A DNA stretch of 48,714 nucleotides from a virus: positions 1-48,714 of the IMG/VR virus record IMGVR_UViG_3300021255_001652. The stretch is one strand, 5' to 3'. Under the pieces are notes generated by a model. It did not search any database. It saw only the letters and a list, made by a program, of their open reading frames with translations, and was not told where the DNA came from. Position 1 is the first letter of the stretch. Each line of letters starts with the position of its first letter. Both the position numbers and the translations under genes were made by a program. This document shows positions 23,976-32,696 of this stretch, one piece after another.

Positions 23976-26900
23976 TTATCTTCGCATTGCTCTTTGTGCT
24001 GCTAAATTAACTAAATCATTAAATGCCTATTCAATTTCTCGTTTACTATCTACATTTGGAAAACTTGCTTCAATATGAACATTTTGTTCCATTTGATCTG
24101 ATGAAATATTACTAAAAGCATTTTGACCAGATGATATATTAAAACGATTGAATAAATCAGTTTGAATTAAGCCTGAAATTGATCTTAAAATTTTTACACT
24201 ATCTAATATATTTTTAGTATCCTCTTGATTTAATACCAATTCTTTTTCATGTAAGATAGCTATTTTTCCATCATTATCATGCCATGTCCCTGTATAACCA
24301 CCAGTATCATACATTGCCATTAGATTAGGTCGTGCAGATCCTCCACTTGATGGTTGCTTTTTAACCACTGTAGTTGTAGTAGTTGTTGTTGTAGTCTATG
24401 TAGCTCCGCTTCTACTGCTGCCTCCAGAACCACTACCTCCACCGCCAGAACTGTCACTTCCGCCAGAAGATGGAGTTGTTTTTGTTGTTGTCCCTGAAGA
24501 CGTAGTAGTGCCTCCGGAGCCTGATCCAGACGTACTTCCACCGCCAGAACCACCAGAAGAACTGCCACTATAAAGCGCCCATAAATCTCTTTGAGCCTGA
24601 ATAAAAGAATGAATTGCTGTAACCGCTTGAGTAGCTGCATTATAGACATTTTTATATTCTGCAGCAAGGAGTTGTGCTTCACTTCTTAATAATTCAATTG
24701 ATCTCATTTCTTCTTCCATTTTATCAATTAAATCATCATTATCTTCAATAGTTTCTTCAATAGAACTAGCAACCTCATCCACTCCGCTTTTAACTTCATC
24801 TAAATCTACTCCAGCAGTATCTGCCATTTGATCTAATTCACCCTAAAAGTCTGTTACAGCTTCTCCAACACTAATAAAAGCATCTTCACAAGCAGGAATG
24901 AATCCACCTTCTTCTGTAACCTTATCTGCCATTTGTTGAATACCGCTTTCCCAAGCAGGAACTAAATCACCCATGAGAATATTTTGTTCATCAACAGACA
25001 TTTGATTATAATTTGCAACATCTGTATTATACAGAGCTGCTAAATCAGCAAAAGCAGATTCCATTAAATTGCCTCTAACAACTAAATTTTCTGCTGTTTT
25101 ATCATTAATATATTCTCCATATTGCTCTCTTAATAAAGCAAGTTTTTCAATTCTTTCTTGCTATGTAAGAGAAGTATCTTTCAAAATATCCTTATATTCA
25201 GATTGAAAATCTCTCCAAGCGGCAAGCATATCATCTAAATTAGATTGATATCTATCCTTGTCAAAATTATAAAGATCATTTTGTGCTTGAGCTAAATCTG
25301 CTTGAGCATCATTTACTGCCCCATTATCTGCAACATATTCATATGAATAATTACCTTGAGAATCTCTTTTTAATCGCATTGAAGTCTTCGCGGATTGAGC
25401 ATCTTGTAAAGCAATACGCGCTTGTTCAACTTGCAATAACTTTTCAGCACGATCAACATCATATTGAGTAACTTTTTCTTTATTCTTTAAAATAGCCAAT
25501 TGTTCATCCATAAGTTTCTTTAATGCTTGTTGATTTTTAATGCTCTTAGTTTCATCCAATGCCTTTTGGTATTTTCTTTCTGTCTCTTGAATAGCAAAGG
25601 CAGTATTTATGGTATCAAGATATTCATTTGCATTTTTATTCATTAACTACCATTCCATACTTAAATAATCAGTGCCTTTGCCATTAGAAATTTTCTTATC
25701 TAATTCATCAAAAATCTTATCAATAGCATTCATATACTTATCTTGAATATTTTTAGCAGCTTCTTCAACAGTTTCATTTAAATTTTTAATAGTATTTTTA
25801 TAATTTTCTTCAAATTGTTTCGCAGCTTGCGCATCTCCACGAGCAACTGCCGCATCCCACTGCTCTTTCCAAAACTCTCTTTGTTTTCTTAATGAATCAA
25901 GTTGTCTTAAATTATTTCTTTCTAAGGTTTCATAATATTTATTCATGGCATCGTAATTCCTATCACCATATAATAATGATAATAAATCAATATCATGCTC
26001 AATTAATTCACCAACATATTCATAATCTTCAATCTGTTTATCAAATTGTTTTTCAACATCATCAATAGTTTCAAAATATGCTTGATCAATATTGTCAATC
26101 AATTGTTGAATATCTTCCATCTATTTCATTAATTCTTCTAAATCAGATTGAAGATCTTCCATGGCTTGCGCTTTATTATCTCCATATATAGCAGATTGAC
26201 CAATTTTATCAATATTTTCAATTTCATTACGAGTGCTAATTAATTTATCTGTTAATGTTTCTATACTTCCTCTACTACCATTAACATTAAAATAAGATTC
26301 AATATCTCTATTATTTTGAGTAACATCACTAAATATTTTCTAAAAATCAGTATCTTTTACAAGATCAGTATGCTCAAGAACCTCTCGACGAAATCTATTC
26401 CAATCTCGCTCAGCTTCACCCATCTCAAGACGGATTTCAACTTCCATTCTAAATTTCTTAATTCTAATTTCAATCTACTACTGAGTAATTTCTTCCATTT
26501 CATCAACTAAATCTTCCATATCTTCACGAAGATCATCATAGTCTTTTATTTTCTTCTCAAGTTTTTTATAATCATCATCTGCGGTTTTTAATTGTTTATT
26601 AATAGCTTCCGCTTCATCTGCAATAGCCTTTTTAACTTCTTTATCTGTTGATTCATTATATAACTTAATTAAATCATTATATTCTTTAGTTTTCAAATTA
26701 ATTTCTGTTTGTTTCTGTCCAAGAATAGACATATAATTTGAAATATTACCATATTTATCAAAAGTAACACCGAGATTTTTTAATGTCTATTGTTGACGTT
26801 CTAAATCCCATTCTTGTAAATCTTGTTTTTCTTCTAATTTTGAATTTTGCTAATCTAATATATCCGATTGTTTATTTAAATTATCAATAAGCTATTTACC

Positions 26901-29900: not shown

Positions 29901-32696
29901 TGCTTTTTCAACTGCATCAGCATGTGCAACAAAAGCTAAAGTAAGTCCTGCAAGGGCAGTTGCGGCAATGGCAAAAGGATTTAAAGAAACTACAGTATTA
30001 AATAATTGAACTTTTACTGTAGCGCCATCTAATGCAATACCTAATGCACCTAATGATACAGCATGAGCATTATTTGCGGTTAATGCTGCTGCGGCTGCCG
30101 CAGAATTTTCATATTGAGCGAGTGCTAATACTTTTAATGCAGTTGCTGCTTTAGTTACTCCAGTCACTAATATTGGAAGTGATATTGCCAAATTTGTAAT
30201 AGTTTGAAGAACTTTTTGTCCAGTTTTTAAATCTTCATTTTTCCAAATACTTCCAATATTTTGAACTTGTTGAATTGCAGAACCTACACTAGCAATTCCA
30301 CCTGCAACCTTTGCATATTGTTCAATCATAAGAGCTCTTTCAGTCTTGCCAATATTGCCATAAAATTGAGCCCTTAAACTTTCAAGTTTTTGTTTTAAAA
30401 TTTCAATTTGTTGTCCAACACTATCAGCACCTTGAGAAAATTCATTTTCTAAAGCAGTACGAGATTGCATTGCAGTCTAACTTGCATTAGAAGAAATTCC
30501 TCTTAATTGCCCTGCAATTAATTCTAATTTTGCAACTATTTGATCTGCTGGTAAATTATCATCTAATTGAGATAATTCAGTTTGTAATTTTATAACATCA
30601 TCAGAATGACGTTCCAACTGTCCACTTTCTGCCAATTCACGAAGTTTTACTGCATATTCTTCTAATGCGCTTTTAGCTTTTATTAATTCATTAGAAATAT
30701 CTTCACCGTTTAAAGATCTACTACCTAAATCTTTTAAAGCATTTCCATAATTTTTTAATGCTATTGTAGTTTCTTTAAAAGTATCTTCTTGCTTTTTAAA
30801 CCTTGATAAAACTGCGTCTTGTGCATCCGCATCTTTCATAACATCTTCTAAGGTTTGCCATGCATCTCTTCCTTCATGAACTTCTTCAATCATTCCAGAA
30901 AGAAAATCTTTTTTGTTATTTAATTCTGATAACTAACTTCCAACTTGTGTAATATTATTTAATAACGATTGCATACCAGTAAATTGCTCTGGCGTCATTA
31001 AACGAGCTAATTCAAGTAATTGTTCTCTATCTTTTAATAAATCTTGACTAACTTGTTCAAGACCTGGAATACCTTGCCAATCTCTTGTAGCTTGTAATGC
31101 TTGATCAAATTGTCTTGCATTTTCTTTACCAATTTCTAAATTGGTAATTGTAGTATTTAAACCTTTTGCAATTTGTTCACTAAATACTGTTATACCAATA
31201 GCGCCTAGTGAACGCAATACAGCTACGCCGCCGCCTAAACTATCAACCAAATCCGCGGTGAATGTCGCAACCGTCGATAATCCATCAATTAATCCATTAA
31301 TACTATCAGTATCAGCTAGACTATCATAAATATCTTCAACAGAAGCCTTTAACATTTGTAAATGTGCAGCTGTTGATTCCATATAAATATCTTGTTGCTC
31401 TTGTAATGTTCCTGCCGCATTTTGAGCTGTATTTAACGCTTTATTATATTCTTCAAAATTGTCAAATAAAGCAAGTAAATTATTATATTGACGTTGACCA
31501 GCCATTATCTGTGTTAAATTAATTTGTTGTTCACGAGTTAAATCTTGCCAACGTCCGCCAATCTCTTCCATAACTTCGCCCATATCACGAAGATTTCCTG
31601 CTGCATCAAGAACATTAAAACCTAATTCTGCCATTTTACCAGAATAATTACCAAGAGTAACACCATCTTCATCAATACCTGCTTTAATATCTGAAATTCG
31701 TGCATAGACCGTTCTTAAAGCTGTTCCGACACTCTCTGGGGCCTGTTTCGTTACAGAAATAATTGTTGATAATTGTGCAGCTAATTGATCTTCACCAACA
31801 CCCATCGCGGCAGCTGCACTTGCGACCTTACTCATACCAGTACTTAATTCCTCAAGATCGGATGCCGTTGTTGCAGCAACCGCAGCTAATCTATCAACAT
31901 ATAATTCAGCTTCCTATGCGTTGACTTTATAGCCGTTCCAAACGGCAGTTAATTGCTCAGAAACATCTGCAGTTGACTGTCCAGTAACATTCGCTGTTTT
32001 TAATGTGATTGCAGCACGTTCCGCAATTTCTTTATCATTTAAACCTTGTTGAGCAAAAATTAAACTTGCATTTGTATAATCTGTAGTTGTTTTGCCCAAT
32101 TCTTTTGCAGCATTATTAGCTTGCACTGCAAATTTTGCCATTTCATCAGCAGATTTTCCAGTAACAATTCGAATATTATTTAATGAAGTATCTAATGATT
32201 TTATATATCCCCAGGCCTGTTCAACAGAACGAGTTAACCCATTTACAGCACCAGAAGCCGCATTCCATTTAACTGTATTAGCAAGAGTTGTTGCCATTTT
32301 ATCCAGTATATTATGTGTTTCTTTTAACTGAATGTTTGTACTTAATACAGATGATGATAAACTTCTAAAAGCAGCTTCGCCTGTAGTCCCCGCCGCCCTA
32401 AAAGCTTGATACACCTGTTCTATTGATGAGCCAGATTGTCTTAATGATTGATTAAAAGTTTCAATATTGACAGTATTTAACTTGGTATTAAATGCTTGTT
32501 TTAAAGCATCTTCCACCCTTCCTGCCTATTCTTTAATTTTATTAAGGGCAGAGGTGGCGGATGCCGCATCTGAATCATTAATCTTCATTATATCACTTAT
32601 TTTCATTTTTTGAAGATCTTGTAATGAAGATTTTAATTGATTCAAATTATTTTGCTGAATATCAAATCCAACCTGATATCTAATTTGATTCGCCAT
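23976..32696 (-). CDS. tail tape measure protein, ~2906 aa, >25 in-frame TAG; coiled-coil rich with two Gly/Ser linkers
   Basis: 13 ORF-track pieces (24027..24368 through 31914..32516) are all frame 0; junctions 24027, 24396, 24843, 25647, 26120, 27417 verified as TAG with reading continuing; TMP core motif ...ITLKTANVTGQS...; RBS AAGGAGATAAAAGG before ATG 32696; TAA 23976. Confidence 0.85.

Follow-up and report, generated by a model that had tools for sequence, protein, structure and literature searches.

The stretch of viral DNA examined here (positions 1 to 48,714 of the IMG/VR virus record IMGVR_UViG_3300021255_001652; the whole of its 48,714 nucleotides is referred to as the window) raises the question whether a region of 8.7 kb with dozens of in-frame TAG triplets, at positions 23976-32696, encodes one giant tail tape measure protein (TMP), and which amino acid TAG would represent in it. 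The explanation that accounts best for the data as a whole, and that we consider probably correct, is that the region is a single TMP gene, that TAG serves as a sense codon and that glutamate is inserted at this codon by a phage tRNA(CUA). A sequence-only reading had singled out the region as an exceptionally long tape measure gene that depends on a suppressor, and had proposed a translation by genetic code table 15 (TAG = Gln) as a check.

Inspection of the reading frames revealed that the minus strand, from 32696 to 23976, represents a single frame that starts with ATG (32696), ends with TAA (23978-23976) and comprises 2,906 sense codons. It contains 36 in-frame TAG codons, the first of them at codon 57, no TGA, and TAA at its end only, and it is open for just two codons 5' of the ATG. 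Thus, the coordinates and the continuous frame of about 2906 codons given by the sequence-only reading were exact, and the strand is minus; its TAG numbers (>25 and ~30) were right in that there are many, while the true count is 36. The same region read on the plus strand begins with TTA, ends with CAT and shows 244 stops; this candidate was rejected as the wrong strand. Translated with table 11, the minus-strand frame falls into 37 pieces, as would be expected of several shorter standard-code genes or of a pseudogene that turn into one open reading frame (ORF) only if TAG is ignored. Such an artefact, to which we assign next to no probability, is already refuted by the frame analysis and by TAG-free homologues. 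No TAA or TGA occurs over 8.7 kb, compared with 221 and 416 stops in the other two frames of the same strand, and in-frame TAG is found in 16 genes of the window. Furthermore, DNA was recovered for 26 homologous genes, all of which are single co-linear frames of 2,570-3,444 codons with 0-95 TAG. Because five full-length, co-linear homologues (L021, L022, L023, L026 and L027; continuous across 2,854-3,039 aa) have no TAG at all, the region is one gene and not an accident of ignoring TAG. The gene, its signals and its parts are as follows.

23976-32696, minus strand: TMP gene, 2,906 codons with 36 TAG, TAA at 23976-23978 (frame, Pfam, PHROG and homologues)
32707-32712, minus strand: Shine-Dalgarno sequence AAGGAG, 10 nt 5' of the ATG, called strong (sequence read directly)
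31137-32696, minus strand: N-terminal TMP domain, aa 1-520, conserved, mean identity to relatives 70%
31503-32117, minus strand: Pfam PF10145 core, aa 194-398 (Pfam match)
27030-31136, minus strand: middle region, aa 521-1889, the presumed ruler body, mean identity 31%, 1,373 +/- 138 aa
29907-30299, minus strand: hydrophobic segment, aa ~800-930, inside the middle region
29778-29873, minus strand: cluster of six TAG, aa 942-973, inside the middle region
27039-27149, minus strand: Gly/Lys/Ser-rich linker, aa 1850-1886 (sequence)
24597-27029, minus strand: probably helical C-terminal module, aa 1890-2700, highly conserved, 804 +/- 15 aa in relatives, mean identity 58%
24327-24575, minus strand: Gly/Ser/Thr-rich linker, aa 2708-2790 (sequence)
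23979-24326, minus strand: conserved C-terminal domain, aa 2791-2906 (sequences read)

The protein matched PF10145, the phage minor tail/TMP core, with E=2.3e-27 and 96.6 bits against a cut-off of 33.2, and its first ~520 aa matched ten TMP families of PHROG with E-values down to 5.6e-65. A Pfam scan of all 2,906 aa found no enzymatic domain, and the motifs 'GGYTG...LHEKELVLN...NVHIEASFPNV' of the C-terminal domain were common to every homologue read. We therefore regard it as almost certain that the product is a phage tail tape measure protein. The canonical core motif and the two Gly/Ser-rich linkers named by the sequence-only reading were thus located, at aa 194-398 and at aa 1850-1886 and 2708-2790, respectively. 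The heptad-like helical regions it described were recovered only roughly, since a hydrophobic period of 3.3-3.9 residues was dominant in 28 of 51 TMP windows of 56 aa. Besides the cluster of six TAG in aa 942-973, a further five TAG are crowded into aa 1252-1282 (28853-28943); about 0.4 TAG per 32 codons would be expected.

Recoding is not restricted to the TMP gene. The window (G+C content 31%) contains about 89 in-frame TAG in 16 genes, whose ORFs end in TAA (mostly) or TGA. TAG is enriched in tail and lysis genes (36 in the TMP; 10, 9, 4 and 3 in other tail proteins; 7 in the lysin) and missing from most genes of nucleic acid metabolism: none was found in the ligase, kinase, phosphatases, RNase H and topoisomerase, nor in a vault-like protein. 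Exceptions among the non-structural genes are a RuvC-like gene (5), two GIY-YIG endonucleases (4 and 1) and an integrase (1). This distribution mostly fits the late-gene control that has been proposed for recoded phages (Borges preprint). At a read-through of 90% per codon, 36 TAGs would leave about 2% full-length TMP (0.9^36), and near-complete decoding is therefore required. With the first TAG already at codon 57, the strict dependence on a suppressor predicted by the sequence-only reading stands: TMP production, and hence virion assembly, depends fully on efficient TAG decoding. As a minor observation on TAG in the lysis genes, the endolysin gene (42028-43785, plus strand), which accounts for the 7 TAGs mentioned, ends with TAG followed immediately by TAA (43780-43785).

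The amino acid represented by TAG was addressed at the codon level. Database homologues write Q at TAG (69/69 and 16/16 positions in the two genes checked); a protein-level tally of the residues opposite TAG is therefore circular and was dropped, and codons were used instead. Within the TMP family, the residues opposite TAG were Glu (27.5%), Gln (11.7%), Asp (11%) and Lys (10%), and this profile of partners matched that of true Glu codons, not that of Gln codons. In TMP columns with at least 90% Glu we counted 284 Glu codons, 21 TAG and one Gln codon, even though CAA/CAG are 3.7 times commoner than TAG overall. TAG was nearly missing from conserved Lys, Asp, Asn, Ser, Ala, Leu and Tyr columns. 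Conserved Gln columns held TAG in 13 cases, 11 of which came from a single genome, L025. When likelihoods were calculated per genome for the TMP, the window was called Glu (Gln lower by 10.7 units of log-likelihood, lnL), as were about 15 relatives, while L025 was called Gln; since the same method returned Gln in this case, L025 represents an internal control. Amino-acid composition did not discriminate between the two options, because the fractions of Glu and Gln both drop as the TAG fraction rises, except that L025 is strongly depleted in Gln.

The same picture emerged outside the TMP. Non-overlapping ORFs of the window and 109 loci were clustered into 34 families, and the 33 non-TMP families had 73 TAGs in conserved Glu columns as against 9 in conserved Gln columns. 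For the 60 alignable TAGs of the window, Glu was the best assignment, followed by Lys (-31 lnL) and Gln (-32 lnL), and the aligned residues were Glu, Lys and Gln at fractions of 0.35, 0.15 and 0.12, respectively. The 24 non-TMP TAGs alone placed Gln at -19 lnL. As controls, real codons of the window were treated as unknowns: GAG was assigned to Glu, CAG to Gln and AAG to Lys, each by more than 100 lnL. At the 36 TAG sites of the TMP, the six nearest relatives show GAA/GAG 68 times and CAA/CAG 35 times. Eleven of these sites are occupied by GAA in every relative and never by CAA, although the change from GAA to CAA takes one step and that from GAA to TAG takes two (via synonymous GAG, if TAG means Glu).

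Most telling were catalytic and invariant glutamates, above all in a RuvC-like resolvase encoded outside the tail genes; a distal tail protein contributed as well.

17524-18012, minus strand: RuvC-like resolvase with 5 TAGs, a non-tail gene and key witness for the meaning of TAG (alignments)
18819-23633, minus strand: distal tail protein of 1,604 aa, syntenic, directly 3' of the TMP gene, 10 TAGs

The RuvC-like protein of the window passes PF02075 above the gathering score; a phmmer search of it against PDB gave no match. A hidden Markov model of the family was aligned to E. coli RuvC, whose sequence was verified against PDB 1HJR, and the catalytic tetrad D7/E66/D138/D141 proved to be kept in the family. 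In the column equivalent to E66, the first Glu of the motif 'IIMEEVRP', TAG is present in 8 of 19 sequences and Gln in none; in four sequences both Glu of the motif are TAG. All five TAGs of the window's own RuvC-like gene are in columns where Glu is the commonest or second commonest residue and Gln never occurs (four with a Glu majority, one with Lys 7 and Glu 4). An analogous situation was found in the GH25 lysozyme family (PF01183, E=2e-24), where 4 genomes have TAG at the Glu of the D-x-E motif, for which all 20 of 20 sense codons specify Glu, and in family cluster 9, where an invariant Glu (29/29) is TAG in 9. In the family of the 1,604-aa tail protein, 8 of the 13 columns with at least 4 TAGs are 65-94% Glu. 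Taken together, the alignments make it likely that TAG encodes glutamate in the family, and the same is probable for the window itself.

If TAG is decoded in this manner, a matching tRNA should be encoded by the phage. Its expected position was derived from the first ORF of the window.

1-822, plus strand: 3' part of an ORF of the 522-aa type, marking the expected position of the suppressor left of the window (relatives' synteny)

In relatives, the ORF at the start of the window (1-822) is located directly 3' of a tRNA cluster that includes tRNA(CUA). Anchoring on this ORF yielded 20 loci, three of which encode proteins 98-100% identical to it in amino acid sequence, and up to 24 tRNAs were present within the 10 kb upstream. 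One tRNA(CUA) each was detected in L112, L116, L117, L118, L123, L124, L125, L126 and L128; L126 is the same contig as L011, and L128 the same as L015, and both L011 and L015 are of the Glu type by their codons. A tRNA search of 29 TMP-centred loci found none. An exact-sequence look-up of the window's first ORF returned no record, and that of its last ORF added only about 0.5 kb.

At positions 1-72, the suppressors of the relatives form a G-C, C-G or G.U pair, as opposed to A-U or U-A in the tRNA-Gln of the phages. In the length of the D-arm region, the suppressors equal the phages' tRNA-Glu and exceed tRNA-Gln. For two of them, the best annotated BLAST matches were tRNA-Glu genes of other phages. 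Covariance models were built from the family's own tRNA-Glu (R1) and tRNA-Gln (R2), with 11-12 sequences each, and all eight distinct suppressors scored 8.8-17.6 bits higher on the Glu than on the Gln model. The suppressor of L102 (L102:9277-9352), a family member found via the topoisomerase anchor, behaved differently: here the Gln model was ahead by 24.7 bits. As a diagnostic, exact anticodon-arm scans of IMG/VR were tried and abandoned: the arms are also common to unrelated tRNA bodies and hence not diagnostic. We infer that the window's own genome carries such a Glu-like suppressor, left of the window start. Two further observations were made on unusual tRNAs. L123:5856-5930 is a tRNA that would decode TAA, its anticodon being UUA. 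Class-II tRNA(CUA) genes whose variable arm is long are present on several unrelated viral contigs (among L130-L248), a hint that further amino acids may be assigned to TAG elsewhere.

Several findings weigh against glutamate and must be set beside the evidence above. The tRNA search found no tRNA gene in the window, and the nearest suppressor is that of L112, whose DNA is only ~84% identical to that of the window. Over their whole sequence, the suppressors are no closer to tRNA-Glu than to several other isotypes, with only L102 being discriminated, and the isotype models were trained on only the 11-12 sequences per isotype mentioned. The TMP of the window is equivocal in the most conserved columns, where two TAGs face Glu, two Gln (aa 2074 and 2192) and one Lys; the two Gln-column TAGs face CAG, which is one transition from TAG. 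TAG sites, moreover, vary more than ordinary Glu sites do (Glu fraction 0.35 vs 0.56-0.68), and where pairs are very close, as only a few are, TAG is matched most often by Gln codons (27% vs 21%). A rival explanation is the classical code 15, under which TAG would mean Gln and the Glu columns would have been entered by GAG-to-TAG mutation at tolerant, Glu-rich surface positions. The two Gln-column TAGs of the window and the Gln partners in the closest pairs count in its favour. No other reassignment of TAG in phages has been documented (PMC9523058, PMC8346664, PMC10607447, Borges preprint), and with the Gln behaviour of L025 and the Gln-like suppressor of L102 code 15 has precedents close at hand. 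We nevertheless consider it unlikely here. It would give 8 RuvC sequences and the GH25 lysozymes of 4 genomes a Gln instead of their catalytic Glu; it leaves the ratio of TAG to Gln codons in nearly pure Glu columns (21:1) and the lack of the one-step codon CAA at the 11 all-GAA sites unaccounted for; it scores 32 lnL below Glu with working controls; and the suppressors of the relatives fit the Glu model better.

Dual decoding, by two suppressors or by a single one accepting both Glu and Gln (for instance through a non-discriminating glutamyl-tRNA synthetase, GluRS, and partial amidation by GatCAB), would yield a mixture and appears more doubtful still. It would accommodate the occurrence of TAG in conserved Glu and Gln columns and almost nowhere else, as well as the presence of both kinds of site in the window. 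Three suppressor genes are known from phAss-1 (PMC10607447), and the tRNA region of the relatives was seen over only 10 kb each. On the other hand, the TAGs in conserved Gln columns belong nearly all to L025 (11/13), a single tRNA(CUA) per relative was present in the region seen, and mixed insertion at catalytic Glu would give partly dead enzymes. Glutamate thus remains the preferred meaning of TAG, and the check by table 15 suggested in the sequence-only reading is probably not appropriate, as codon and tRNA evidence points to Glu; table 15 probably mistranslates the TMP at 36 positions. Within the family, homologues with the standard code (L021, L022, L023, L026 and L027), a genome with TAG resembling Gln (L025), a locus with a Gln-like suppressor (L102) and many genomes of the Glu type were observed. 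On balance we favour the view that the family, including the phage of the window, reads TAG as Glu by means of a suppressor derived from tRNA-Glu, a code undescribed in any virus or prokaryote in the literature searched, and that sister phages use the standard code or Gln, giving three coding states.

A plausible mechanism, in line with what is established on the formation of Glu- and Gln-tRNA, can be outlined. The suppressor would be a tRNA-Glu derivative with CUA anticodon, its gene lying outside the window, and would receive its glutamate from the host GluRS; at position 36, both C and G are already accepted by a non-discriminating GluRS. In tRNA-Gln, the features recognised by GatCAB are the U1-A72 pair and the short D-loop. 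Both are missing from the family's suppressors, and the charged suppressor might escape amidation. The TMP would then be translated only in the presence of the phage tRNA(CUA), whereas a host using the standard code would halt the product after 56 residues, and the use of TAG may confine the TMP to the late phase. In proteomics, Gln that has undergone deamidation looks like Glu.

To gene callers and databases, any TAG-recoded phage is a code 15 phage. If TAG means Glu in this family, thousands of deposited proteins carry wrong residues, including residues in active sites and, in the TMP homologues checked, up to 95 per protein. Stop-codon reassignment in phages would then have occurred more than once with different outcomes in one family, which would make the family a natural system for the study of code change. 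The mechanism would be testable as well, namely by charging of a tRNA-Glu body with a CUA anticodon and its escape from GatCAB in hosts without glutaminyl-tRNA synthetase.

The glutamate reading departs from the published systems. Throughout the literature found, phage TAG recoding is treated as Gln, and in the literature searched no phage or prokaryote was found to be described as reading TAG as Glu. Code 15 phages (Lak and crAss-like; PMC8346664, PMC9523058, Borges preprint) resemble the window in that a phage tRNA(CUA) decodes in-frame TAG, which in the window is concentrated in structural and lysis genes. In Lak phages, the residue opposite TAG is Gln in 75-85%, and occasional Glu has been explained by GAG-to-TAG mutation (PMC8346664); in the window and its family, by contrast, TAG is found opposite Glu in 28-35% and opposite Gln in 12%, and also at catalytic Glu sites. 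A further comparable system is the phAss-1 group, ~136-kb uncultured gut phages with a giant TMP and dozens of tRNAs, including tRNA-Sup(CTA), in which TAG interrupts TMP, TerL, portal and other late genes (PMC10607447). Its authors assigned TAG to Gln from TerL alignments and tRNAscan-SE (PMC10607447), whereas TAG of the window aligns with Glu and the relatives' suppressors are Glu-like. The phAss-1 group showed no similarity to the window by megablast of the TMP gene or by tblastn of the TMP C-terminal module and the vault-like protein.

UAG is not known to be read as Glu outside eukaryotic nuclear codes, namely NCBI tables 30 (Peritrich) and 31 (Blastocrithidia). These codes share with the window a stop codon reassigned to glutamate. 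They differ in that UAA is reassigned too and that the change is genome-wide and eukaryotic; here, TAA is the main stop, TAG alone is reassigned, and the carrier is a virus.

How unusual is the TMP itself? A homologue search over 5.8 billion proteins found 3,934 homologues, and the best 120 of these were 2,006-3,511 aa long with a median of 2,896 aa, on contigs of up to 141 kb. The TMPs of phAss-1 and the proposed 'Phassvirus' (OQ749652, BK046881, BK025033) measure 3,149-3,209 aa (PMC10607447), and PHROG also contains TMP profiles of 2,625-2,675 positions. The designation as exceptionally long in the sequence-only reading could thus not be upheld: within its own family, the protein is of average length, and the giant TMP gene itself is an unremarkable representative of a known kind. 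The same holds for its linkers, since polyG/S/T tracts occur in 95.5% of TMPs (PMC13585406). Its value is that of a well-anchored example which predicts a tail of 370-510 nm and a virion whose assembly is wholly dependent on recoding. With regard to the homologues, we also noted inteins in P0005, P0006, P0026, P0027 and P0031, with Hint/intein domains PF07591, PF14890, PF05203 and PF14623; the intein of P0005 sits close to the C-terminus.

Calibrations for TP901-1, SPP1 and lambda amount to 0.126-0.176 nm per residue. From these values and 2,906 aa, the tail would be about 370-510 nm long, that is, long but no record. The 400+ nm tail and the siphovirus type in the sequence-only reading are likewise predictions. 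Tails of siphoviruses mostly measure 50-200 nm, and that of P74-26 nearly 1 um (PMC10034513), and hence the TMP of the window is long without being the longest. Thermus phage P74-26 is comparable in that its TMP is very long and determines a tail that is likewise very long, and non-contractile; the phage is unrelated, uses the standard code and has a tail about twice the length predicted for the window. Similar to the classical rulers (lambda gpH, SPP1 gp18, TP901-1 TMP and T5 pb2), the protein combines a PF10145-type core with a probably helical, extended character and a hydrophobic segment, putative distal tail proteins follow 3', and length is the conserved quantity. It differs in being about three times longer, in lacking recognisable G/GT-like chaperone or tube genes before it, and in that the TMP gene opens its transcriptional block and faces a divergent non-structural block.

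The prediction of tail length presupposes that the full protein acts as a ruler. Total TMP length among relatives is 2,893 +/- 193 aa, and total and middle-region lengths are constant to ~7-10% among relatives that are 30-65% identical; such conservation of length without conservation of sequence is the signature expected of a ruler. Some observations weigh against it. The usual chaperone genes 5' of the TMP were not recognised in family scans of the window, and their expected position is taken by two small ORFs.

32722-33207, minus strand: two small ORFs of 62 and 93 aa directly 5' of the TMP gene, the expected chaperone spot (no family match)

Likewise, Pfam and PHROG scans recognised no sheath, tube, Dit or Tal gene in the window, and the flanking large proteins gave no informative Pfam or PHROG match for deciding between siphovirus and myovirus morphology. 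One may therefore ask whether the protein is a TMP homologue whose full length does not set the length of the tail, because a part is cleaved at the Gly-rich linkers, remains outside the tube or is ejected as an effector of its own; in that case the tail would fall well below 400 nm and could be contractile. The modules bounded by two flexible linkers, the hydrophobic segment at aa ~800-930, the missing tube, sheath and chaperone genes beside the TMP and a helical periodicity in only 28 of 51 windows would all be in line with this option. The ruler signature and the absence of an enzymatic domain from Pfam scans of the protein speak against it, and we judge it improbable, if slightly less so than a Gln meaning of TAG.

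The surroundings of the TMP gene are also kept in relatives. The syntenic 1,604-aa tail protein follows 3', and the 62- and 93-aa ORFs precede the TMP gene 5', followed by a divergent block; relatives show the order TMP, tail protein of 1,300-1,600 aa and RuvC-like gene, and a divergent 5' block with the vault-like protein, phosphatases and RNA ligase. The family consists of large, uncultured phages with genomes of ~130-146 kb that are known from metagenomic and viral contigs alone (IMG/VR, ENA/Logan and three bins of metagenome-assembled genomes, MAGs). Contigs of ~139.6 kb from the family were binned as 'uncultured Bacilli' and 'Endomicrobiaceae' MAGs; these contigs are probably whole phage genomes. 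Megablast of the TMP gene against 50,697 phage records gave no match, tblastn of the conserved C-terminal module (811 aa) reached only ~22% identity, to TMPs of Enterococcus phages, and tblastn of the vault-like protein against annotated phages detected only three huge phages of 462-735 kb at 37% identity. As only such distant matches exist for the module and the vault-like protein, no annotated relative genome was usable.

In the divergent block, the vault-like protein (34847-37339, plus strand; 830 aa, no TAG) matches the 'shoulder' of the major vault protein (PF11978, E=2.6e-22) and is kept beside the TMP in relatives. It is followed by an RNA-repair-like block (37877-41615, plus strand) with metallophosphatases, an RNA ligase (PF09414), an AAA_33 kinase and a phosphoesterase, which is TAG-free apart from one TAG in the ORF 40251-40604; relatives (L001:8608-9378, L003:7010-7828) add a Thg1-like tRNA-His guanylyltransferase. 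Further downstream on the plus strand, a type II topoisomerase/GyrB-like gene is present in two ORFs around a GIY-YIG homing-endonuclease ORF with 4 TAGs (45315-46871, 47052-47762 and 47880-48302), and a second GIY-YIG ORF (44558-45322) is situated just 5' of the topoisomerase gene.

Between two blocks of tail genes, a tyrosine integrase is encoded on the minus strand (10199-11200), with one TAG (aa 267) before the C-terminal catalytic residues. Integrases of published recoded prophages avoid TAG. A module of ~90 aa ('...KVGKTGIYELDN...') without family match is present in three paralogous copies, at 32926-33207 (minus strand), 9837-10157 (plus strand) and 6889-7581 (plus strand, C-terminal part), the first of which is the small ORF just 5' of the TMP gene. 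Finally, a run of TAG-free ORFs at 14472-16451 (minus strand) encodes Gly/Asn-rich and Cys-rich proteins without family match that are kept in about 10 relatives; its ORF 15558-16451 ends with ...CNNNGCGCGCGGNAFFN.

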